Shown: positions 17,673 through 27,586, counted from the stretch's first letter. The stretch is 64,000 nt of DNA from Firmicutes bacterium ADurb.Bin146 (GCA_002070475.1 MWDI01000026.1:2354-66353); one strand, 5' to 3'. A program made the numbers and translations. Notes: a model not told the origin generated them from the sequence alone.

Positions 17673-19601
17673 TCAATTTACTTGTAAAATTTTCTCAAAT
17701 TCCTCATATGGCATAGGTTGATAATAGTAGTAACCCTGCACTATGTCACAATCAAGGGATTTTAAAACATCAACCTGCTCTTTTGACTCAACACCTTCGC
17801 ATATTATCTGCAAATCCATGCTATGCGCAATATCCGCAATACCTTTTATCATTTTTTTCGTCTTGCTGTTTTCCAAGTTATATATCATACTTTTATCAAG
17901 TTTTAGAAAATCCAGCATGAAGTTTGGAAGATCTGCAAATGATGCATAACCTGTACCGAAATCATCCAAAGAAATAGTAAAACCAAGTTCTTTAAGCTTG
18001 TTCACAATCTCGTTCATCATTTTTGCATTTTCTGCTATAAGGCTTTCTGTAACTTCTATATTAAGATAATACGGAGGTACTTCATATTTTGAAGCTATGA
18101 TAAATATCTTGTCACAAAAACTAGTATTGATGAAGTGCGATCTTGCAAAGTTTACTGATACAGGAACTACTTTTTTCCCTTCTTTAAGACTCTGTGAGAT
18201 AAGCTGGCATGCTTTTTCAAACATATACAAGTCAAATGCTATTATAGTGCCGCTTTTTTCAAAAACTGGTATATACTCTCCCGGGCGTATAAGCCCTCGT
18301 CTGGGATTGTACCACCTTGATAATATCTCTCCTCCACAGATACTGTTATCTTCAAGATAGATTTTTGGCTGTATGTATATAAGGAATTCAGCTTTCTGCA
18401 TACTTGATAAAAATTCCTGTTGTAAAAGATTTTCCTCCATAGTCATTATGTGAATAGTCTCATCATAAAACATATATCTTAATTCATCTTTGTCCTTTAT
18501 GAACTGGCGAGCTTGAAGTGATTTCTGCATAAGTATATCCATATTTGTTTCCTCATATTTGGGGGTATATATTCCAATACTGAGAACCACAGGATATTCG
18601 GATTTTTTTATTTCATATTTTTCATTTACCCTGTTTATTACCTGGGTTATTCTAGCTGCCATTTCAGACTTTTCTGTAAACTGGAGTAAAAGTATGAAAT
18701 CATCATTATTCGCTTTTACCAGGATCTCGTTGTTGTATATAAGGTCATCGAGTATGACGGCAATATCAGTCTGGACTTTATCTGCTTCAGGATATCCGAA
18801 AACTTCTCTTATGTAATCCAGATTATTAACGACAAGATTCGCCATACAGTAGGAGCTTATATTCATAGAACTAATGGACACATCGGTAATAGCTTTCATT
18901 CCCTTAATGTTAGGATATCCGGTAAGCCTGTCAGTGTTTAAGAATAAAGTCTTCTGCTTTTTATATCTAGAAAAAGCTATAAGGACAGTAAAAGCAATCA
19001 CTGCAACTATAATAAACGCTGATATTGCTATTACTATATATACTTTGGTATTATCAAACATTTTTTCATACTGCACAGCTTCAGCTGCAATGATGGAGCT
19101 TATCTCTTGCTCAGATATTGTATAAATAGCACGGTCAATCAGTGCTATGACTTCTAATGGCGCTCTTTTTGTATATTGTATAGCTATATTGTGTCCGCTG
19201 AAATTTGCAAGCTGTCGTGATGTTATAAAATCTGTGTTTTGATATACACTTGAAATAGTAATATCTGCTTGAAGATTAGTGCCGTATTGTATAGCTTTTT
19301 CTAAATCTTTTGTCTGTATATACTCGAATTTGAATCCAGTGAGCTCTGATACATGTGAAAGGATCTGTACTATAACGCCTTCATACTTTTTATTGGATGG
19401 GTTATAGAATTCAAAAGGGAAGTTTTTACTGTCTAAAGCAACATAAACAACCGGATAAGAGGACACTACTGTTTTTTCCTCTTCTGTTAATATAAATTCT
19501 TCTTCTAATATAAATTCTTCTTCAGATGCCTTAACATTGCATATTGATAATGCTATTAGAATACAGGATAGTATTATTATGATAACTTTCCTTTTAGCCA
19601 T
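17673..19601 (-). CDS. Membrane sensor c-di-GMP phosphodiesterase: SBP-like ectodomain / TM / degenerate GGDEF / EAL
   Basis: Start at MAKRKVIIIIL (AAGGGAG RBS). EAL motifs EILSR, VSVNFA, IEVTES, DDFGTGYAS, KLDKS, EGVES, QGY all present; GGDEF position reads NDDF. Confidence 0.85.
   Translation of the reverse strand: MAKRKVIIIILSCILIALSICNVKASEEEFILEEEFILTEEEKTVVSSYPVVYVALDSKNFPFEFYNPSNKKYEGVIVQILSHVSELTGFKFEYIQTKDLEKAIQYGTNLQADITISSVYQNTDFITSRQLANFSGHNIAIQYTKRAPLEVIALIDRAIYTISEQEISSIIAAEAVQYEKMFDNTKVYIVIAISAFIIVAVIAFTVLIAFSRYKKQKTLFLNTDRLTGYPNIKGMKAITDVSISSMNISSYCMANLVVNNLDYIREVFGYPEADKVQTDIAVILDDLIYNNEILVKANNDDFILLLQFTEKSEMAARITQVINRVNEKYEIKKSEYPVVLSIGIYTPKYEETNMDILMQKSLQARQFIKDKDELRYMFYDETIHIMTMEENLLQQEFLSSMQKAEFLIYIQPKIYLEDNSICGGEILSRWYNPRRGLIRPGEYIPVFEKSGTIIAFDLYMFEKACQLISQSLKEGKKVVPVSVNFARSHFINTSFCDKIFIIASKYEVPPYYLNIEVTESLIAENAKMMNEIVNKLKELGFTISLDDFGTGYASFADLPNFMLDFLKLDKSMIYNLENSKTKKMIKGIADIAHSMDLQIICEGVESKEQVDVLKSLDCDIVQGYYYYQPMPYEEFEKILQVN
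19488..19523. repeat. Perfect 18-bp tandem duplication inside the phosphodiesterase gene
   Basis: taatataaattcttcttc x2 (19488..19505, 19506..19523), encoding EEEFIL EEEFIL just after the signal anchor. Confidence 0.9.
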
Positions 19602-19602
19602 T

Positions 19603-20046
19603 TCATCTCCCTTGATTAATTTTATATGCCTCATCACAGTCATTCTTTATGCTTTCAGCCTGCTTTATAAATTTTTTAGAAGTTTTTGTCACTGCTTTTT
19701 TAAATTTTTCAAATTCCTCCTTACATTGTTCATACTGTTGTGTCTGTATTTCTTTTTCAGATATTACATCTTTTAATATGTTATCCGCTTGTTTTCTTGC
19801 ATCAGTTATTATTTTATCAGCTGCATTTCTTGCATGTACAAGAGTGTGTACTATTTCATCCTGATTTTTGTTTAGCTGTTCTAGTCTTTTCATAAGAGCA
19901 TTATTCTGCATCAGTATCTCTGTTACCTGCCTATCCTTTTCATGGATATGAGTGTTAAGATCCTCGTTAAGAAGTTCTATGTATTTAATAACATCTTTCT
20001 TGGAATATCCGAATAAGACTTTTTTTAGACCTTTGAATGCAATCAT
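19603..20046 (-). CDS. DivIVA-domain coiled-coil protein
   Basis: 147 aa; N-terminus ...FGYSKKDVIKYIELLNEDL resembles the DivIVA lipid-binding head; rest predicted coiled coil. Confidence 0.55.
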   Translation of the reverse strand: MIAFKGLKKVLFGYSKKDVIKYIELLNEDLNTHIHEKDRQVTEILMQNNALMKRLEQLNKNQDEIVHTLVHARNAADKIITDARKQADNILKDVISEKEIQTQQYEQCKEEFEKFKKAVTKTSKKFIKQAESIKNDCDEAYKINQGR

Positions 20047-20096: not shown

Positions 20097-21500
20097 TTAC
20101 TGGTTAAGTTTTACCCTCTTTATTTTACCCCATTGTAATTTTTTCTTTTTATAACCTATAAAGGATGTCATTCTAGTGAAAGCCAGTATTATCCTAAATC
20201 CCACATTTTCATATATGCATGCCCATATGGCTTTCCACACATCCTCTTTGGTCAGTCTTATGTTCTGGGTATGTATTCTGGAGAAAAAAGCAGACAGAGT
20301 AATAACCGCTCCGAAAAGTAAAGAAATTACCATATAAGTTAATGCAACTTTGGTTGTTACCATTCCAAGAAGGAACATTGCTATAACTGACAATATTCCA
20401 AAAATCTCTATATATGGCGATAACAGCTCAAAGATAAGGAAATACATATAAGATATAAAGCTCACTGCTCCAAATTTACGGCTAAAAAGCATCTGCTTAT
20501 GCTTGCTCAAACTTTGGAATAATCCTAAATGCCATCTTCGCCTCTGTTTTCGTAAATCTCTCATACTTTCAGGAGCCTGACTCCAGCACACTGCTTCAGT
20601 TTCATATTTTATTGTATATGGAATATTATTTTTCCTACAGAAAACATGCAACCTTACCACAAGTTCCATATCTTCTCCCATAGTTCCATTATCATAACCT
20701 CCGACAGCAATTACAATATCTTTTTTAAATAATCCGAATGCTCCGGATATTATCATGCTTCCGTTAAACATATCGAATAGAATCCTAGACGCTAAAAATG
20801 ATCTTTCGTATTCCAGAACCTGCATAGCAGTGACCATTTTTTTAGGCATGCCATATTTTTTTACTTTCCCATTTTCCAGAATAACTCCGTTAGCTATCCT
20901 GACAAGCCCTCCACAGGCTATAAGATTCTCATCTGTTAGCACCGGTCTTACAATTCTTTCCAGAGCATCTGACTGAAGCATGGAATCAGCATCCATGCAT
21001 ATGAAGTAAGGATATCTGGAAGCATTTATGCCCATATTCAAAGCATCTGCTTTGCCACCATTTTTCTTTCTTATAAGTACAACAGGTACTTTATATGCAT
21101 AACTTTCATAAACGAACTCCTCTTGCTGACATCTTATGCTTTTTTTAATCTTTCTTCTTAACTTTGTCATCTTAAATTCTTCTATTAAAACCTTTGATGT
21201 ATCATCTTTGGATCCGTCATCAACAACTATTATCTCATAGAGCTTGTAATCCAAGTTCAAAAGAGAGTGTACTGTATCACAGATAGTTACTTCTTCGTTA
21301 TAACCGGGGACAATAATAGAAACAGGAAAATAGTATTCATGTGAAATTTCATTATGCAGCCTGCTCATTTGTTGATTTTTATACAGTTCTGAAGCTCCTA
21401 CAGTCACGGATATTACTAAAAAAGTCGCATACACAAGAAGATATAAAGAGTAAAATGCTCCTATTGATATTAGTATGGTCCTAACAACTTCTACAAACAT
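20097..21500 (-). CDS. Processive family-2 glycosyltransferase (PgaC/IcaA/BcsA-like synthase), multi-pass membrane
   Basis: 467 aa; VVDDGSKD, CMDADS, GEDMEL and QRRRWHLG (D,D,D,QxxRW) motifs; TM helices at both ends; no PilZ domain. Confidence 0.85.
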   Translation of the reverse strand: MFVEVVRTILISIGAFYSLYLLVYATFLVISVTVGASELYKNQQMSRLHNEISHEYYFPVSIIVPGYNEEVTICDTVHSLLNLDYKLYEIIVVDDGSKDDTSKVLIEEFKMTKLRRKIKKSIRCQQEEFVYESYAYKVPVVLIRKKNGGKADALNMGINASRYPYFICMDADSMLQSDALERIVRPVLTDENLIACGGLVRIANGVILENGKVKKYGMPKKMVTAMQVLEYERSFLASRILFDMFNGSMIISGAFGLFKKDIVIAVGGYDNGTMGEDMELVVRLHVFCRKNNIPYTIKYETEAVCWSQAPESMRDLRKQRRRWHLGLFQSLSKHKQMLFSRKFGAVSFISYMYFLIFELLSPYIEIFGILSVIAMFLLGMVTTKVALTYMVISLLFGAVITLSAFFSRIHTQNIRLTKEDVWKAIWACIYENVGFRIILAFTRMTSFIGYKKKKLQWGKIKRVKLNQ

Positions 21501-21501
21501 G

Positions 21502-22617
21502 TTATTCTCCCTGGTTAGCTTTCTTTTTCAGTCTAGCAGTCTCTATTTTATACTCCAGTATTTCTCTTGCGTATCTGTCTGCCCCATTGTATATATCAAC
21601 CAGTTCCATATATTCCACATCCAAAGAAACCAGGCTTTCAGAAGCATTGTATCTTATATACCAGTTATTTGATTTTAATGCATCTTTCAAAACATCAATC
21701 ACTTCTTTGCTTTTATATTTTGCTAGAGCTGAAGCTCCAATAGCCTTATATTCCCATTCCAAATTCTCCTGCTTCATAAGTGATACAAGATACTCTCCAG
21801 CCGAAGCATAATAGATTTTTCCGAAATATCGGATTATTGCCAACTTGATTTCTTTATGGGTATATTTATTTTTTAGTAAAGCTAAAAATGGTTCTGCATA
21901 ATCTAAAGTTGAAACCTTTATGAAATTTATTATAGCAATCCTTATATTAATATCAAATCTGTCAAATTCTTTCCATAACAGCGATGCAAGTTTTGCTCTG
22001 TCTCCTTGAAACAACAGTAATCCATCAGATATCAATTTGTTATTGTGCTTTATATTTAACTCCTGCATTCGGAGCATTGCGGTAAGAATAGCTTCACTGT
22101 TGTTAGAAGTGTACAATGCATGAAGAGCATTTTGTCTGACATAAACAGACTTGTTCATTGTGTATGAAATCATGACTGAGACTATGAAGTCATAACTAGC
22201 ATCATCACAAAGCCTGAATTCTGATATAAGAAAAGCAAGATAAGCTTTTTTTGTGTTTTCTTTAGTATCAAATTCGATAAGCACATATTCAAATAGCGGT
22301 TTACATAACTTAAGATATCTAAATGTGTTTTTTTCATTTATTTTAACTTCTTCTTTTATAGCGTCATGAAATGCCTTTAAAACCTTTACCTTTGTTAGTC
22401 TTCTAAATAGATATGACTGTTTATTTTCATCTATCTTGCTGTTTTTTGAAACAAGCAGTACTTGTTCTCTTACTATCTGCCTTATTTTTTCTTTCTTACC
22501 CTTAAAAAGGTAATCCTTGTAACGCAGATATAAAAGATAAGCCGTATTGAATAGAATCATTAATATACATATTATGATGTAGATGATTAATATGAGATCT
22601 ATCCTAATTTCACTCAT
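21502..22617 (-). CDS. Membrane-anchored HEAT-repeat protein
   Basis: 371 aa; N-terminal TM (IDLILIIYIIICILMILF); repeated helical units ending ...NWYIRYNASESLVSL typical of HEAT_2/PBS-lyase repeats. Confidence 0.6.
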   Translation of the reverse strand: MSEIRIDLILIIYIIICILMILFNTAYLLYLRYKDYLFKGKKEKIRQIVREQVLLVSKNSKIDENKQSYLFRRLTKVKVLKAFHDAIKEEVKINEKNTFRYLKLCKPLFEYVLIEFDTKENTKKAYLAFLISEFRLCDDASYDFIVSVMISYTMNKSVYVRQNALHALYTSNNSEAILTAMLRMQELNIKHNNKLISDGLLLFQGDRAKLASLLWKEFDRFDINIRIAIINFIKVSTLDYAEPFLALLKNKYTHKEIKLAIIRYFGKIYYASAGEYLVSLMKQENLEWEYKAIGASALAKYKSKEVIDVLKDALKSNNWYIRYNASESLVSLDVEYMELVDIYNGADRYAREILEYKIETARLKKKANQGE

Positions 22618-24763
22618 TATCTTTAGTCATTCCCTCGCTTGTCCACACTTGCTTTATCATATAGTAGGATTGTTTCAATCTCTCATGATAAGTAACTTTA
22701 TCCCATCCTTTTAATTTGAATGGAGACATTTTTATTATATTCCCTTTGTTTTGATTTGACCCTATCCCTATTCCTATCCCTTTTATATTTATAAATTCCA
22801 CACCATAATTTTCATAATAGTCATCATGAACCTTCATTTTAGACGGATCAGAAAAATTCAATATACTCCAAGGTATCCTCATTTCTATATAATCCTCGTT
22901 TATATAAAAATCTGCTAGAGAATTGTATTCATCATCTTTTGGATTGCTGTTGCCATGTGTAAGTATTCCTGTTTCATATGTCTGGGCCATTAAATCGGGA
23001 TTATTTATCTTTTCTACTGATTCTAGTTGAAGTATAAGGCGTATCTGATTAAAAACAGGACTGTTCTTTTGTGGAGGATTAGAATAGGGGTTCACCCCAT
23101 TTACATACTGATCATATAACGCTTTAAGAGTATCATATCTTTCCTGTACTAGAATCCTTGTTTCTTCCTGTCCATCGATGACTATCAAAAAATCTGCATA
23201 TGCATCAAATCTGACATCATGTTCAGTACTGTAATTACTACCGGTTTTTGGTGTAGTGTCTATGGGTATGTATAGGATATCTGATTTTTCATCATAATTT
23301 TTTTTGTAAACAAGGTAATATATATACTTTTCATCATACTGCATGTATATTTTCATATCACCGTTAATAACAGCAGGGTTTATGTTTTCCCATTCCGTTA
23401 TATCCCCATCAACATGACATAATACATCTTCCTCACCAGGGTCAAATGACAAGATACCGAAACCTTGATCACTTGATTGTGAGTCTGACCAGTATATAAG
23501 TCTTTTTTCATCAACAGCATGCTGGGTGTTCCATGTAGCTTGTGTCCAGTCATCCTGCCATATATACAAAAGGCTTCCTGCACAGTTTACTGATTTTATC
23601 TGTTCATATGTGTCGATAATTATCTTCCCTTGCTCATATTCTGTGTTTCGCCCCTGGTTATACCCTTTATTTGTATCTTCATGTGCCATTCCTCTTGCAG
23701 TAGGTACTCCAAATTCCGTTATTACTATAGGAATACTATGATGAAGTTTGAGCATTTTAAGATATGCGGTGTATGTGTTCACATTTCCTTGATCATCTTT
23801 AAACCAAAATTCTTTATTCTCAAAATAGTTAAGATAACCCGGATAGTACGGATATGCATGATATGATGCGAAATGACCAGAAATAAATGCATCTGTCGTC
23901 TTTATATGTTCAACATCAACCGAAGCGCATTTCTTGAAAAACTCTGTTATATAATCTGGGTATTCAAAAGGATCTGTAGAAGGCCAGTTGAAAAATGATA
24001 TAAGCCTCTGCTCTTTATACCTTTTTGATTCATAATCTATTATAGTATCTCCTATCATGGCAAGGACAGATTCAAATGCTGTCGCTTCTTCTGATGTATA
24101 CATATACTTCCCGCTGTATCCTTCATGAGTATCATGAAGCTTATTAGTATAAGCGATGGTATTGCTGTTCCAGTTGGAACCGAGAATGTATCCGATTACC
24201 CATGGAGAAACGTCTCTAAGATAAAACCCATAACCGCTAGCCTGGTTGAGTACAAGCTGACGGTTTCCGTGAATTATATCAACAAGGATATATGTATTCT
24301 TAATTATTTCTTTATAGAAATCCTCATCCATCGCATTTATATGGCTGTTCTGTACATAATCGGATATTGTCAGACCATGCAGAAGATAAAGAGGATTATC
24401 ATTATCCTTATTATACTGATAAAGAGCATTATAGAAATCTGCATTCATGATTTGATAAACTCTTATTGTATTTGCTCCCATTTCCTGTATCTGCCTGAAC
24501 CATCTAAGAAAATCATATTTTGTAATAGAATAATCAGTTCCGAAGCTGCCAGGTATCGTATTACCAATGTTAACTCCTTTAATCTCAAATCTCTCATATT
24601 TCCCGTTTTTAAGTATATATATGCTTTCATTGTCAGTATTAAATATTGTCATGACTGGAGCATCAGGATTAAAATCAATAAAGAAGCTTGTGAAGAAGAG
24701 TATATAATTTATACCTATTGCAAGACTTATTACTATCACTGTCGCTATAAGAAACTTCTTCAT
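22610..24763 (-). CDS. Membrane-anchored 717-aa protein with clan GH-A-like (beta/alpha)8 region and C-terminal beta-rich domain
   Basis: N-terminal TM; IKGVNIGNTIPG...MGANTIRVYQ and VITEFGVPTARG (TE[FY]G nucleophile-type motif); function unknown. Confidence 0.45.
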   Translation of the reverse strand: MKKFLIATVIVISLAIGINYILFFTSFFIDFNPDAPVMTIFNTDNESIYILKNGKYERFEIKGVNIGNTIPGSFGTDYSITKYDFLRWFRQIQEMGANTIRVYQIMNADFYNALYQYNKDNDNPLYLLHGLTISDYVQNSHINAMDEDFYKEIIKNTYILVDIIHGNRQLVLNQASGYGFYLRDVSPWVIGYILGSNWNSNTIAYTNKLHDTHEGYSGKYMYTSEEATAFESVLAMIGDTIIDYESKRYKEQRLISFFNWPSTDPFEYPDYITEFFKKCASVDVEHIKTTDAFISGHFASYHAYPYYPGYLNYFENKEFWFKDDQGNVNTYTAYLKMLKLHHSIPIVITEFGVPTARGMAHEDTNKGYNQGRNTEYEQGKIIIDTYEQIKSVNCAGSLLYIWQDDWTQATWNTQHAVDEKRLIYWSDSQSSDQGFGILSFDPGEEDVLCHVDGDITEWENINPAVINGDMKIYMQYDEKYIYYLVYKKNYDEKSDILYIPIDTTPKTGSNYSTEHDVRFDAYADFLIVIDGQEETRILVQERYDTLKALYDQYVNGVNPYSNPPQKNSPVFNQIRLILQLESVEKINNPDLMAQTYETGILTHGNSNPKDDEYNSLADFYINEDYIEMRIPWSILNFSDPSKMKVHDDYYENYGVEFINIKGIGIGIGSNQNKGNIIKMSPFKLKGWDKVTYHERLKQSYYMIKQVWTSEGMTKDNE

Positions 24764-24778
24764 CTTCTTATATATCTC

Positions 24779-26191
24779 CTACCTGTTATATGGCTTATTC
24801 CTTGACTCATGAGAAAACTGCATTAACGTATCTATATTCTCATCTATCCATTTACCTCTTGCGATTATGTATTCTTTGAGTTGATTTAATGCAGCTTCAT
24901 AACTCTTAAGATTCCTTTTTGCAGGTTCTAGCATCCCTTTGTCATATACAAAAGTATATCCCCATTTTTCAAAATTCCTTTCAATAGCTGGACCTAAATA
25001 CTTAACAGTCTGGTCAATATATTCAAGTATATATTCCTCACTCAATACAGTCTTTCTTAAATCCTTATATCTTTTAATTACCAGATTTGTGAAGTACTCA
25101 TCCTTCATAAGCATGATGTACCATACTTTGTTCTGAAAGAAGAAACCCGCAGTATTCATAGGTGTTTCAATATAGTTATCATATGCATTGTTGAAATCCC
25201 ATACAGGGCCTATCTCCAACTTTCCCTTTATATCTTTAAATATGTAAGTTGAATAAATACCAGCATCGTAATTTTGAGTGAATTCATTTATTATCAAATA
25301 ATCAACAAAAGACATCACATCAATATATTTTCGATAACCTAATCTTATATCATCATAATCATAGGAATATAATGCTTTCTCGAATTTCGATATATCATCC
25401 TCAATGAAGGTTATAAGCTGCTCATTTAAATATTTTTTTGCAGGATAGATGACATTGCCAATAGATGTCGAATTAAATGTGTATCTTGTAAAAGGATTGA
25501 TTTCCTCTTCCGGATCAGAACCTCTATCCAGTCTTACTATATAGCTTGTAAAAGGATCATTCTCATTATACTTGGCTATGTCCACCCTTCCTTTGGAACG
25601 TGATACTGATTCCATCATCACATATATGCCCATATACTCATCATTTATAAATACTTCACAAAAACGTACATCCGGAGCATTTTTCATCATCTGTCCCGCT
25701 AAGTTCATGCTGATATAGTTCCTTATCAGAGTCTTATCCAGTATAGGTCCGTTAAGGACCCATTCATCATGAGATTCCATTCCCATAATCTTCTTGCTGT
25801 TTTCTGTACGGTCAGTATTAATGAGCTTGATTAGATAGGATTTCTTATCAAAGAAAAGAGAGGAATTACCTCTTGCCCTTATAGTGATAAGGCTATGCAA
25901 ATCCACTTCATCGTCTAAATGGTTATTGGAATCAGATTTATCAAATATGGAAAGGTAGGAATCTATAACCGAGCTTCCATCTACCAATGCAGGTATCTGC
26001 TGATTATGAGTGTCTATTTTTACTAAGGGAAGATGCGTGCAGAATTGTCCGTCTGTGTGGTTGCACTGAACATCCTTAACATCCATGGAATGCTGATGAT
26101 ATCTTTCATATCCATAGTTATAGAAAGTAAGAAAAACAGCTGTAGCTATAAGGAATATGATGGCTATTATACTGATTATCTTCCTATGCAA
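24779..26191 (-). CDS. CotH-family atypical kinase, N-terminally membrane-anchored
   Basis: 470 aa; single TM IISIIAIIFLIATAVFLTFY then CotH-like core (…LIKL…, YIVRLDRG, GPVWDFNNAYDNY). Confidence 0.7.
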   Translation of the reverse strand: MHRKIISIIAIIFLIATAVFLTFYNYGYERYHQHSMDVKDVQCNHTDGQFCTHLPLVKIDTHNQQIPALVDGSSVIDSYLSIFDKSDSNNHLDDEVDLHSLITIRARGNSSLFFDKKSYLIKLINTDRTENSKKIMGMESHDEWVLNGPILDKTLIRNYISMNLAGQMMKNAPDVRFCEVFINDEYMGIYVMMESVSRSKGRVDIAKYNENDPFTSYIVRLDRGSDPEEEINPFTRYTFNSTSIGNVIYPAKKYLNEQLITFIEDDISKFEKALYSYDYDDIRLGYRKYIDVMSFVDYLIINEFTQNYDAGIYSTYIFKDIKGKLEIGPVWDFNNAYDNYIETPMNTAGFFFQNKVWYIMLMKDEYFTNLVIKRYKDLRKTVLSEEYILEYIDQTVKYLGPAIERNFEKWGYTFVYDKGMLEPAKRNLKSYEAALNQLKEYIIARGKWIDENIDTLMQFSHESRNKPYNR

Positions 26192-26201
26192 AGTATCTCC
26201 T

Positions 26202-26879
26202 TTAACTGTTCACTTCATCATTCTGCTCAACAATATTCACATATTCGATGTGTTGAAGTTCATAAAGCCTATCGGTTATGCTTTTTTCATTTACAGCCGC
26301 CTTCCTCATGACTTTTTTTGATACTTCATAAATATATTCAACAGTCAGTTCCGTAGTATTTTTTACCCGAAGATTTGCTTTTGCTGAATAATAGTTGAAT
26401 ATGATTGCTTCAATCTGCCGTTCAGAACCTCTTGCTCCTTTTATTATAACAAGCATTCTATTGTCATTCTTTATTTTTCCAAATGCAAGAAGCAATACGA
26501 AAACAATAGCACTTCCTATCGCTGCTACAAGATAATCTCCTGCTCCGCAGCAAATGCCTGCTATAATCGCCCAGAATATGTATGCTGTATCCCTAGAATC
26601 TTTAATTGCAGTACGGTATCTTACGATGGACAGCGCGCCTACCATACCTAATGATAAAGCTATATTATTTCCTATAACAGTCATTACCATTGTTGTTAAT
26701 AAAGTCAGCATCAATAATGATACATTAAATTTCCTGCTATATATGGTTCCTGAATGGGTATACATATACGACAGGAATATAACTATCCCGATTGCAATAG
26801 CGACAATAAGGTGTGATAGAATCTCCTGTAATGTCAGAGTCTTTCCCTGCTCAAGCAGTTTTAACAAGTACTGTGTCAT
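26202..26879 (-). CDS. DUF4956-family membrane protein
   Basis: Start at MTQYLLK (GAGGAGGG RBS); LGMVGALSIVRYRTAIKDSRDTAYIFWAI motif characteristic of DUF4956; 4-5 TM plus soluble C-terminal domain. Confidence 0.65.
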   Translation of the reverse strand: MTQYLLKLLEQGKTLTLQEILSHLIVAIAIGIVIFLSYMYTHSGTIYSRKFNVSLLMLTLLTTMVMTVIGNNIALSLGMVGALSIVRYRTAIKDSRDTAYIFWAIIAGICCGAGDYLVAAIGSAIVFVLLLAFGKIKNDNRMLVIIKGARGSERQIEAIIFNYYSAKANLRVKNTTELTVEYIYEVSKKVMRKAAVNEKSITDRLYELQHIEYVNIVEQNDEVNS

Positions 26880-26890
26880 AATCCCTCCTC

Positions 26891-27586
26891 TTAAAAAACA
26901 TAGTTCAAACATATAGTGCGGCTTAACGCATATTTGCTTACTGATAATTCGGATTTATCAATCCTATCAAGCATATCCTTTATATACGACAGTAAAAATC
27001 CATTATACTTCACTTCTAAAACAACACTGTCTTGGTGAAAAACCGGGTACATGTTCAGATTTCCAGAAAATATATCGAAACAGCTTTCCGTAGCACGGAT
27101 ATTATGGTCAAATGTCACCCTTATATCATTTTCCTTAGCAATAAATGCTTTCCTGTTGTATTCCACTATTGCTTTAGGCCTGTAGAAACGCATATTCATA
27201 ACAGCATATGCTTCTTTTGCGAAAGGTTCCGAATAATTTAGTAAAGGTGAATAAATCCCTTTTGTTAAGAGTATAGCATCCTCTCTTGACATCTTAAGAG
27301 ATCTTTTAAGCTGTTGGGTACCTTGCTTTTGTTTCATCTCGAGAGATGCGAAATGATTATCGGTTTTGTAAATCCTTAATCTTATTTTCCTTCTTATCTC
27401 AACACCATCTTCTTTTTCATTAAAATCATTATCCGATAAAGTATCAAAATAAAGGGATCTTACAGTATAACCATGCTCGCCATTGTTTACGTCCTGAGCT
27501 AGATAGGCATTAAATGCAGCCGAGTACTTTATGTAATCTGATTTTGTTATTAGATATTTCTTTTCCTGCCTTAAGACCTGTTTCAT
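26891..27586 (-). CDS. VTC-domain (CYTH-like, polyphosphate-polymerase-type) protein
   Basis: 231 aa; N-terminal QEKKYLI..., ...RSLYFDT..., EIRRKIRLRIY, LEMKQK pattern typical of bacterial VTC-domain proteins; no TM. Confidence 0.65.
   Translation of the reverse strand: MKQVLRQEKKYLITKSDYIKYSAAFNAYLAQDVNNGEHGYTVRSLYFDTLSDNDFNEKEDGVEIRRKIRLRIYKTDNHFASLEMKQKQGTQQLKRSLKMSREDAILLTKGIYSPLLNYSEPFAKEAYAVMNMRFYRPKAIVEYNRKAFIAKENDIRVTFDHNIRATESCFDIFSGNLNMYPVFHQDSVVLEVKYNGFLLSYIKDMLDRIDKSELSVSKYALSRTICLNYVF

Follow-up and report, generated by a model that had tools for sequence, protein, structure and literature searches.

A VTC, DUF4956 and CotH gene triad in a Clostridia polysaccharide operon as a candidate membrane-spanning accessory module

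A kinase-fold enzyme that is predicted to lie outside the cell membrane has no obvious supply of ATP, and the question of what such an enzyme could use arises at a locus of Firmicutes bacterium ADurb.Bin146 (GCA_002070475.1). We analyzed a stretch of 64,000 nucleotides from this genome (MWDI01000026.1:2354-66353), hereafter the window, in which ORF calls place three genes in a row on the minus strand at 24779-27586, in the order VTC, DUF4956 and CotH. All three ORFs sit where the original prediction had put them. That prediction had pointed to the external kinase and its missing ATP, and had proposed that a polyphosphate (polyP) chain made by the VTC protein is passed through DUF4956 to CotH. 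The question proved to be a real one, raised by the exofacial CotH itself; the proposed answer fared less evenly. We show that a Vtc4-type enzyme, a five-TM MgtC-like protein and an exofacial CotH with an intact core are encoded together. A consensus scan found no convincing minus-strand terminator inside the operon, and NCBIfam models gave zero matches for all three proteins.

Predicted placement of the three proteins

The first gene encodes a VTC-domain protein of 231 aa (26891..27586, minus strand; Pfam PF09359, E 3.8e-41) that consists of the VTC domain alone. It had been described as free of TM segments, and the hydrophobicity scan was indeed empty. Both a fused SPX sensor and a C-terminal three-helix TM channel domain (DUF202) are absent from the 231 residues. 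A single-sequence PDB search with this protein returned zero matches, and a profile built from 45 homologues matched Vtc4 (3g3q, E 4e-9). The Vtc4 residues that bind triphosphate, together with the Mn2+ ligand E426, were taken from a published list (bioRxiv 10.1101/2023.01.27.525886). In the profile alignment, K10, R69, R71, K85 and K94 pair with Vtc4 K200, R264, R266, K281 and K294, and Y143, R145, R156 and E191 pair with Y359, R361, R373 and E426. K10, R69, R71, K85, Y143 and R145 fall within the significant HMM alignment (E 4e-9), and E191 is paired with E426 only through a weak second alignment segment; these seven residues are invariant or at least 90% conserved in the homologues. The basic tunnel residues of Vtc4 are thus retained in the alignment to 3g3q.

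Active Vtc4 is set apart from the inactive Vtc2 and Vtc3 by the lysine K458. In the window protein, an S217-K218-Y motif follows E191 at the spacing expected, with K218 invariant and S217 and Y219 at least 90% conserved, and S217-K218 probably corresponds to Vtc4 S457-K458. A search with a profile of the last 60 residues failed to recover Vtc4, and we therefore infer this equivalence from the position of the motif. The AF2 model of the protein (pLDDT 94.8) retrieved only tunnel domains of yeast Vtc4, Vtc3 and Vtc2 at Foldseek ranks 1-13, with TM scores of up to 0.77; the best fold was Vtc4 with bound AppNHp or polyP (0.74-0.77), compared with about 0.5-0.57 for other TTMs. Neither PPK1 nor PPK2 was matched in the source genome, which leaves the VTC protein as its sole candidate polyP synthase. 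By sequence and model, it is a predicted triphosphate-tunnel enzyme of the polyP polymerase (Vtc4) type, soluble and located in the cytoplasm, and we lean towards the view that it makes polyP.

The longest DUF4956 ORF spans 26202-26912. Because a GAGGAGG ribosome-binding site lies 5' of M12 and homologues begin there, we take M12, at 26879, as the real start, which gives a protein of 225 aa (26202..26879, minus strand; Pfam PF16316, E 1.3e-13). Its AF2 model (pLDDT 82) contains five TM helices (26481-26831, minus strand) and a predicted cytoplasmic ACT-like domain, a tail of beta-alpha-beta-beta-alpha-beta order (26223-26459, minus strand). The four to five helices and soluble tail expected earlier are borne out by the five helices of this model. 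The mean K+R count is 4.0 in the loop between helices 3 and 4, 3.6 past TM5 and 0 in the two outer turns, and the topology is predicted to be N-out/C-in. At the TM3/TM4 junction, alignment and charge counts mark a basic motif, SIVRYRTAIKDSRDT (26586..26630, minus strand), whose residues R87, R89, K93, D94, R96 and D97 are invariant across 46 DUF4956 sequences. This motif is predicted to face the cytoplasm, where it might conceivably form a docking site or a polyanion entry.

The Pfam MgtC model scores 25.5 bits against DUF4956, under its cut-off of 31.4. The best PDB folds among the matches listed are the MgtC C-terminal domains 2lqj and 7qa5, the lone Foldseek match under E 0.001 being 2lqj, and the 50 best listed Foldseek matches include no chain of a VTC complex. 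Sequence comparison and modelling agree in marking DUF4956 as MgtC-like and not Vtc1-like. An identity as a Vtc1-like channel, that is, a three-TM DUF202 protein forming a pentameric pore, was rejected on account of the five TM helices, the ACT-like tail and Pfam matches to DUF4956/MgtC only. No VTC-DUF4956 or DUF4956-CotH fusions occur among the best 150 of 6802 representative clusters, which are about 220 aa long or fragments, and an alignment search for distant (diderm) DUF4956 homologues returned only close Firmicute relatives.

The third protein, of the CotH kinase-fold family (470 aa; 24779..26191, minus strand; Pfam PF08757, E 5.2e-65), starts at a TTG codon with an AAGGAG ribosome-binding site 5' of it. 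Its Pfam match reaches 220.5 bits against a cut-off of 23.8 and covers model positions 1-322 of 322. The sole hydrophobic helix is a signal anchor, IISIIAIIFLIATAVFLTFY (residues 5-24; 26120..26179, minus strand), with MHRK before it and a net-negative flank after it. In 69/69 CotH homologues the N-terminus is basic and leads into a hydrophobic segment, and the flanks of these anchors carry a mean charge of +2.4 on the N side and -0.5 on the C side. Lipoboxes were found in two homologues, and two further homologues of 1082-1088 aa carry LTD and Fn3-associated domains. Given the type II signal anchor, the kinase-fold domain is predicted to lie outside the membrane. The single N-terminal helix and external domain that had been claimed for CotH therefore hold: the N flank is the more positive in 64 of the 69 homologues, and a cytoplasmic location is not supported.

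Alignment to B. cereus CotH (5jd9) locates the catalytic core at 25196..25267 (minus strand). D309 (25265-25267) corresponds to B. subtilis D228 and B. cereus D224, and D332 (25196-25198) to B. subtilis D251 and B. cereus D247. Both aspartates are retained and invariant across 45 CotH homologues, so the catalytic residues have not been lost, and K116 (25844-25846), in the strand RG...KKSY, is likewise invariant. In B. subtilis CotH, the D228Q and D251A variants are inactive (PMC7821199). As a separate observation, these core residues are the same as in the ATP-dependent B. subtilis enzyme, which counts against polyP as the donor.

Gene linkage and polysaccharide context

We fetched 80 loci, each with a DUF4956 homologue. 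A VTC gene is present in 78 of them, almost always immediately 5' of DUF4956 on the same strand, with one locus (L008) carrying it at the far end of the operon. CotH lies immediately 3' of DUF4956 in 71 of the 80 loci, and three loci (L055, L071 and L072) contain a second DUF4956-CotH pair, a single VTC gene being shared by both pairs. This order and the duplicated pairs suggest a specific partnership between DUF4956 and CotH. Seven loci from Lachnospiraceae consist of a sigma factor, VTC and DUF4956, with CotH missing.

The same linkage is seen when 150 genomes are sampled from the class (Clostridia), among which DUF4956 never occurs without VTC (75/75). Cross-tabulation of VTC and CotH gives 56/21/5/68 (Fisher p 1e-17, phylogeny uncorrected): the VTC-DUF4956 pair is found in 56 of 61 CotH-positive genomes (92%), 5 of the 61 are without the pair, and 21 of 77 VTC-positive genomes are without CotH. 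The three-gene arrangement is far from chance, and the VTC and DUF4956 proteins are likely to form a complex. Since the pair stands without CotH in these 21 of 77 genomes and in the seven Lachnospiraceae loci, it appears to have a function of its own. The idea that CotH is cytoplasmic in the genomes without the pair was rejected: it was readable in four of the five, and each of these proteins (4/4) is exported, having a signal peptide, a TM anchor or a lipobox. Among 14 control genomes, VTC and DUF4956 are both present in B. thetaiotaomicron, C. glutamicum and M. acetivorans and in no others, and CotH is present in these three and in B. subtilis. The B. subtilis protein is an enzyme of the mother-cell cytoplasm and, being cytoplasmic, would need no pair.

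The three genes that follow CotH in the window, all on the minus strand, place the triad in a polysaccharide operon. The next gene encodes a signal-anchored extracytoplasmic protein of 717 aa (22610..24763) with no Pfam match of its own. Its profile matches the GH2-domain chains 9fz9 (E 1.7e-4), and GH72 matches occur in 5 of 25 of its homologues; the protein resembles glycoside hydrolases or transglycosylases of clan GH-A. It is followed by a HEAT-repeat protein of 371 aa with one N-terminal TM helix (21502..22617; Pfam HEAT_2, E 3e-13), whose C-flank is the more positive in 25 of 27 homologues, so that the HEAT domain is predicted to be cytoplasmic. Then comes a processive family-2 glycosyltransferase (GT2) of 467 aa (20097..21500; Pfam and NCBIfam matches), which is PgaC/IcaA-like and chitin-synthase-like and is the predicted polymer synthase of the cassette. 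DivIVA-like and EAL-type genes are next; the last gene of the operon is of the c-di-GMP phosphodiesterase type. The gene for the 717-aa GH-like protein comes next after CotH in 27 of the 80 loci, and GT2 is kept 3' of the HEAT gene in 27-29 of them.

Overall, the triad is partnered with three unrelated synthase types, namely GT2/HEAT/GH (as in the window), BcsA-PilZ/MBOAT/AlgX/GH5, and Pel. It is widespread and serves non-Pel synthases too. In the window genome, a role as a Pel accessory was rejected, as PelG gave zero matches in the source genome and the neighbours are GH-like, HEAT and GT2 genes.

Export to CotH and alternative readings

We read the triad, tentatively, as a portable accessory module that spans the membrane and belongs to synthase-dependent exopolysaccharide systems, and with the mechanism that follows the whole explanation is possible rather than probable. 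Docked on an oligomer of DUF4956, the VTC protein would polymerize NTP-derived phosphate; the docking or entry site would be the invariant R/K loop of DUF4956 on the inner side of the membrane. DUF4956 would then hand the chain to the outer face, like eukaryotic VTC with unrelated TM helices. CotH, having no ATP outside, would act downstream, the chain most likely being its phosphoryl donor and a nascent glycan or matrix protein its target. That the VTC product crosses the membrane at all is doubtful, and that CotH then uses the exported product, which is the full chain of steps, is quite improbable. We give equally little credence to a PPK-independent prokaryotic VTC-like machine in which the VTC enzyme and oligomeric DUF4956 would make polyP and pass it through the cytoplasmic membrane, and in which polyP would replace ATP for an exofacial CotH acting on exopolysaccharides or surface proteins. 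Exported CotH-fold kinases are very common, and we know of no phosphoryl donor for them, of no kinase of this fold that uses polyP, and of no MgtC-family member that acts as a pore. To our knowledge, lipid-linked donors are so far the only answer to how bacteria manage phosphoryl chemistry beyond the membrane, in the absence of ATP.

The original proposal of polyP passing via DUF4956 to CotH accords with the gene linkage and with three findings described above, namely the external CotH domain, its retained catalytic residues and the retained VTC tunnel residues. The MgtC-like character of DUF4956 and knockouts in S. intermedius speak against it. There, where the triad is SIR_1594/1593/1592 (mBio 2025, PMC12345266), deletion of VTC gave no aggregation phenotype, whereas deletion of DUF4956 raised Pel and deletion of CotH lowered it (PMC12345266). 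These knockouts do not behave like a linear pathway, and together with the exported CotH of genomes without the pair they weaken the case for export of polyP to CotH.

The opposite shifts in Pel, with aggregation unchanged on VTC deletion (PMC12345266), look more like regulation than a linear supply line, which brings forward a module that works without export. At the inner membrane face, the VTC protein would here either produce polyP or bind a phosphate ligand, to be sensed by the MgtC-like DUF4956 via its ACT-like tail, and DUF4956 would tune the synthase or CotH by intramembrane contacts. Salmonella MgtC acts likewise on the F1Fo ATPase and PhoR. CotH would work outside by itself, perhaps using a different donor or serving to bind or scaffold. 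The MgtC architecture of DUF4956, the closeness of its tail to MgtC C-terminal domains, the c-di-GMP phosphodiesterase-type gene at the end of the operon and the cytoplasmic HEAT protein are all consistent with such a role. However, regulation leaves unexplained why a polymerase-like enzyme should have an obligatory polytopic partner (75/75), why the pair accompanies CotH in 92% of CotH-bearing genomes, and why the CotH catalytic residues are invariant. We consider it rather unlikely.

Another possibility is that polyP is exported and becomes an anionic constituent of the wall or matrix, such as a counter-ion or cross-linker of the exopolysaccharide, with CotH merely co-regulated as a separate matrix-modifying enzyme. 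The pair without CotH, in 21 of 77 VTC/DUF4956 genomes and seven Lachnospiraceae loci, would be expected on this account, as would exported CotH without the pair. It leaves the ATP problem of CotH in place, however, and the position of CotH after DUF4956 in 71 of 80 loci, with the duplicated DUF4956-CotH pairs, points to partnership instead; such deposition is unlikely.

Equally unlikely, in our view, is that the bacterial VTC protein is a tunnel metalloenzyme of another kind, for example a triphosphatase, polyphosphatase or nucleotide cyclase, whose link to phosphate polymers is nominal. TTM enzymes have many different activities, and this diversity leaves room for such a function. Bacterial VTC proteins retain R6-x-E8-x-K10, an RxExK remnant that is reminiscent of the ExExK metal site of hydrolytic CYTH enzymes, whereas Vtc4 has T198 in place of E8, and the K458 equivalence did not emerge from the alignment. 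Set against this, every mapped Vtc4 polymerase residue is conserved, the S-K-Y motif is invariant or nearly so where S457-K458 is expected, the fold is clearly nearer to Vtc4 than to any hydrolytic TTM, and the genome offers no alternative polyP synthase.

At least three unrelated exopolysaccharide synthase systems, among them the C. perfringens NELoc-2 type and streptococcal Pel, are accompanied by the triad. If the pair does supply CotH, the MgtC superfamily would gain a new function in transport, the eukaryotic VTC complex would have a counterpart in bacteria, glycan or matrix modifications relevant to biofilms would include a new class, and polyP would act outside the membrane as a currency of energy and phosphoryl groups. 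If the pair does not supply CotH, the module remains a widespread biofilm accessory.

Relation to known systems

Each of the three proteins has a better-known relative from which it departs. The Bacillus spore-coat kinase CotH (5jd9/5jda) belongs to the same Pfam family and shares the Asp pair and the KKSY lysine. Its substrates are CotB and CotG, it uses ATP, and its site of action is the mother-cell cytoplasm, whereas the window CotH is signal-anchored outside, has no CotB/CotG partner and lies within a polysaccharide operon. DUF4956 resembles MgtC/SapB proteins such as Salmonella MgtC in its five-TM N-terminal domain and cytoplasmic ACT-like C-terminal domain, with weak sequence similarity; unlike them, it carries SIVRFRTAIKDxRDT as an invariant motif and is obligately partnered with VTC. 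The eukaryotic VTC catalytic domain polymerizes polyP and threads the chain through a membrane channel. The window system shares with this complex (Vtc4/Vtc3/Vtc1; 3g3q, 7ytj, 8i6v) the tunnel fold, the triphosphate- and Mn-binding residues and a membrane partner with conserved basic residues at its predicted cytoplasmic face. In contrast to it, the window system lacks both an SPX domain and a fused TM domain of the DUF202 type, its partner being a separate five-TM, MgtC-like, ACT-tailed protein, and the destination of the chain would be the cell exterior instead of the vacuole lumen.

The triad itself is not new: cotH, a polyP polymerase and DUF4956 were described as a set of accessory genes at the pel loci of Gram-positive bacteria (Whitfield 2020, PMC7112168). 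The families are the same, and so are the predicted locations: CotH is secreted, the VTC protein is cytoplasmic, and the third is an MgtC-like TM protein bearing an ACT tail. The gene order differs, being VTC-DUF4956-CotH in the window and CotH-VTC-DUF4956 in pel loci, and the window CotH is without the FN3 domain of its pel-locus counterpart. The window triad is also not contiguous with pelDEADAFG, its partner being the GT2/HEAT/GH cassette. The authors of the pel papers place the triad at pel loci only (PMC7112168, PMC12345266); contrary to that report, it also occurs outside them. What is new here is the occurrence of the triad with non-Pel synthases, the constancy of the VTC-DUF4956 pairing (75/75) and the presence of the pair in 56 of 61 CotH-bearing Clostridia.

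The window cassette most resembles the core of C. perfringens NELoc-2, CP4_0463-0468 (Lepp 2010, PMC2879425), which encodes a VTC protein of 230, a membrane protein of 222, CotH of 497, a hypothetical protein of 685, a HEAT protein of 377 and a GT2 of 466 aa (PMC2879425). With 231, 225, 470, 717, 371 and 467 aa, the window genes follow the same order at near-identical sizes, a likeness in gene order and size. NELoc-2 additionally contains a further VTC-membrane pair, a resolvase and a sigma factor, and its DUF4956 genes were annotated as 'tubulin/FtsZ' (PMC2879425). The window comes from a 2.5-Mb Clostridia genome unrelated to the C. perfringens host of NELoc-2, and the NELoc-2-type six-gene cassette is found in 27 of the 80 related loci.

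Topology and conserved residues of the three proteins

Three closely spaced ORFs on the minus strand (24779-27586) encode a VTC, a DUF4956 and a CotH protein, each single-copy in the genome (2.53 Mb, 98% complete). The original prediction, a VTC protein without transmembrane (TM) segments, a DUF4956 protein with TM helices and a soluble tail, and a CotH protein with a single N-terminal helix, proved right in all details. The VTC protein (231 aa; 26891-27586, minus strand; Pfam VTC, E 3.8e-41) has no hydrophobic segment by hydropathy. The longest DUF4956 ORF begins at 26912 on the minus strand; the true start codon is that of M12 (26879), which has a GAGGAGG ribosome-binding site in front of it and is shared by all homologues. 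CotH (470 aa; 24779-26191, minus strand) uses a TTG start after AAGGAG, matches the full Pfam CotH model (E 5.2e-65) and contains a single hydrophobic segment, IISIIAIIFLIATAVFLTFY, at residues 5-24.

Topology was assessed from hydropathy, from a structure model and from the positive-inside rule applied across many homologues. In each of the 69 CotH homologues adjoining a DUF4956 gene, a hydrophobic segment comes after a basic N-terminus. Net charge averages +2.4 for the N-flank against -0.5 for the C-flank, and in 64 of the 69 the N-flank carries the more positive charge. Lipoboxes occur in two homologues (L075, L076), and two others of 1082-1088 aa (L078, L080) carry four lamin-tail and Fn3-associated domains, a make-up typical of extracellular proteins. 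The Streptococcus intermedius homologue has likewise been called secreted (PMC12345266; PMC7112168). Together, these features place the CotH domain outside the membrane, as originally proposed, and do not support a cytoplasmic location. Its catalytic core is kept: D309 and D332 align with D224 and D247 of Bacillus cereus CotH (5jd9), equivalent to B. subtilis D228 and D251, either of which abolishes kinase activity when mutated (PMC7821199). Among 45 homologues, neither aspartate varies, nor does K116 of the RG...KKSY strand. Just outside the anchor (residues ~28-60; 26010-26110) lies a His/Cys-rich motif, R-Y-H-Q-H ... C-x-H ... F-C-T-H-L-P, which is kept in cassette-type CotH proteins, is absent from BcsA-type ones and might bind a metal or an anion.

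The AlphaFold2 model of the VTC protein (pLDDT 94.8) has yeast Vtc4/3/2 tunnel domains as its 13 best PDB matches (TM-score up to 0.77), with hydrolytic TTMs ranking well behind. A profile of 45 homologues matches Vtc4 (3g3q, E 4e-9) and pairs K10, R69, R71, K85, K94, Y143, R145 and R156 with Vtc4 K200, R264, R266, K281, K294, Y359, R361 and R373, so that the tunnel residues singled out for checking are retained; E191 pairs with the Mn2+ ligand E426 in a weak second alignment segment. In a cryo-EM study (bioRxiv 10.1101/2023.01.27.525886), K200, R264, R266, K281, Y359, R361 and E426 contact triphosphate or Mn2+, and those of them that were mutated are required for polyphosphate (polyP) synthesis; K294 and R373 are basic residues close to the tunnel exit. 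The invariant K218 (S-K-Y motif) is probably the counterpart of K458, the lysine by which active Vtc4 differs from inactive Vtc2/3, a pairing that an attempted alignment of bacterial VTC with Vtc4 did not recover. Bacterial VTC proteins also conserve R6-x-E8-x-K10 (27563-27571), which by sequence resembles a vestige of the ExExK metal site of CYTH enzymes; its Glu is Thr in Vtc4.

For DUF4956, the AlphaFold2 model (pLDDT 82) places a beta-alpha-beta-beta-alpha-beta domain after five TM helices, matching the anticipated four to five helices plus soluble tail. Across 46 sequences, the mean count of Lys plus Arg is 4.0 for the TM3-TM4 loop and 3.6 for the stretch immediately following TM5, against 0 for both short turns on the opposite side; this distribution predicts an N-out/C-in protein with a cytoplasmic tail. 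The family's most conserved motif, SIVRFRTAIKDxRDT at the TM3-TM4 junction, contains four invariant basic residues. Pfam returned DUF4956 and a sub-threshold MgtC match, and the best fold matches are the MgtC C-terminal domains of Mycobacterium tuberculosis and Pseudomonas aeruginosa. By sequence and model, the protein is thus an MgtC-like protein with a signature motif of its own; a Vtc1-type channel subunit was rejected, as both searches point to MgtC. The family comprises 6802 clusters at 50% identity, and the best 150 of these contained no fusions, all members being ~220 aa or fragments.

Co-occurrence across genomes

Among 150 genomes of the class, DUF4956 was found in 75 and VTC in 77, with all 75 in common; the two remaining genomes are incomplete assemblies with truncated matches. 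CotH was present in 61 genomes, 56 of which also have VTC and five of which do not; of those lacking CotH, 21 have VTC and 68 do not. Fisher tests gave p values of 6e-41 (VTC/DUF4956) and 1e-17 (VTC/CotH), which ignore phylogeny and so overstate independence. Of 14 control genomes, the same three (Bacteroides thetaiotaomicron, Corynebacterium glutamicum and Methanosarcina acetivorans) have matches to both VTC and DUF4956, and CotH matches these and B. subtilis. VTC and DUF4956 are clearly an obligate pair, and CotH is clearly a frequent, optional third member seldom found without it.

A strict need of exported CotH for the pair would predict a cytoplasmic CotH in pair-less genomes. Of the five such genomes, four had a readable gene, and each of the four divergent proteins (L084, L085, L087, L088) carries a signal peptide, a TM anchor or a lipobox, being lipoproteins, signal-anchored, or 1216 aa long with a signal peptide. 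Strict dependence therefore fails.

A possible phosphate module

The window genome has no match to PPK1 or PPK2, which makes its VTC protein the sole candidate polyP synthase. The best single explanation of the triad is a membrane-spanning phosphate module. Beyond its anatomy, we infer that VTC would make polyP where a DUF4956 oligomer faces the cytoplasm, that the chain would be handed outward, and that exofacial CotH would work downstream, most likely with the chain as phosphoryl donor and the nascent glycan as target. Fam20B and POMK, kinase-fold glycan kinases of eukaryotic secretory compartments, are established precedents. PolyP export is a tentative and, on balance, doubtful proposal; the full chain through to CotH use is very unlikely.

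Several observations count against this mechanism. DUF4956 is MgtC-like, and no MgtC-family member is known to act as a pore. CotH retains the core of an ATP-dependent kinase. VTC deletion in S. intermedius gave no aggregation phenotype, and in the same work DUF4956 and CotH deletions shifted Pel in opposite directions (PMC12345266). Finally, the RxExK remnant kept in bacterial VTCs is missing from Vtc4 and might indicate different metal use or chemistry. Of the rival readings, an MgtC-like regulatory module that exports nothing is unlikely; somewhat less likely still are polyP exported into the matrix with no tie to CotH and a VTC whose activity is not that of a polymerase.

Exopolysaccharide cassettes and known loci

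With the DUF4956 protein as query, 80 loci were retrieved. VTC is present in 78 of them, nearly always directly upstream on the same strand, and CotH lies directly downstream in 71. In 27, the triad is followed as in the window by GH-like, HEAT and GT2 genes (20097-24763, minus strand; also L006-L030, L063, L075-L079). These encode an exported ~700-aa protein without a Pfam family and with weak GH2/GH72 similarity, a TM-anchored HEAT-repeat protein whose HEAT domain is cytoplasmic by flank charge, and a PgaC-like synthase. The operon seems to run on (17673-20046) with a DivIVA-like gene and a 656-aa two-TM protein. By homology search, PDE-like genes follow the cassette in six of the 80 loci and precede the triad in two more.

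In a second type, found in Lachnospiraceae, Oscillibacter and one Enterococcus (downstream of CotH in L033, L058, L044 and L055), the triad precedes MBOAT, an AlgX/DHHW-type SGNH protein, a BcsA-like GT2-PilZ synthase and a GH5 cellulase, which looks like a system for an O-acetylated cellulose-like polymer. Seven Lachnospiraceae loci without nearby CotH (L034, L041, L043, L045, L047, L056, L062) encode a GDSL lipase-like protein, an ECF-type sigma factor, VTC and DUF4956. Additional DUF4956-CotH pairs without their own VTC sit a few kb away from a full triad in L055 (17231-19509), L071 (9959-12238) and L072 (10013-12289), suggesting a dedicated DUF4956 partner per CotH, with one VTC serving both.

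The triad accompanies Gram-positive pel operons (PMC7112168; PMC12345266), and the 2025 authors report that they could find no instance of all three genes away from pel loci (PMC12345266). The window genome, which has no PelG match, and the two non-Pel cassette types show that the triad is not confined to Pel systems and serves synthase-dependent exopolysaccharide systems in general as an accessory. Besides this demonstration, our study adds residue-level checks on all three proteins, an N-out/C-in five-TM model of DUF4956 with a predicted invariant cytoplasmic basic loop, and the co-occurrence pattern in numbers, exceptions included. The topology puzzle raised by the original prediction is genuine, general and simple to test at the bench. 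The gene set has been in print since 2010, when it appeared as NELoc-2 (PMC2879425), and was described again for pel loci in 2020 and 2025 (PMC7112168; PMC12345266), with no mechanism given. In the Clostridium perfringens NELoc-2 core, where DUF4956 genes were annotated as tubulin/FtsZ (Lepp 2010, PMC2879425), the published gene table gives the same six-gene order as the window cassette, with almost equal protein sizes.
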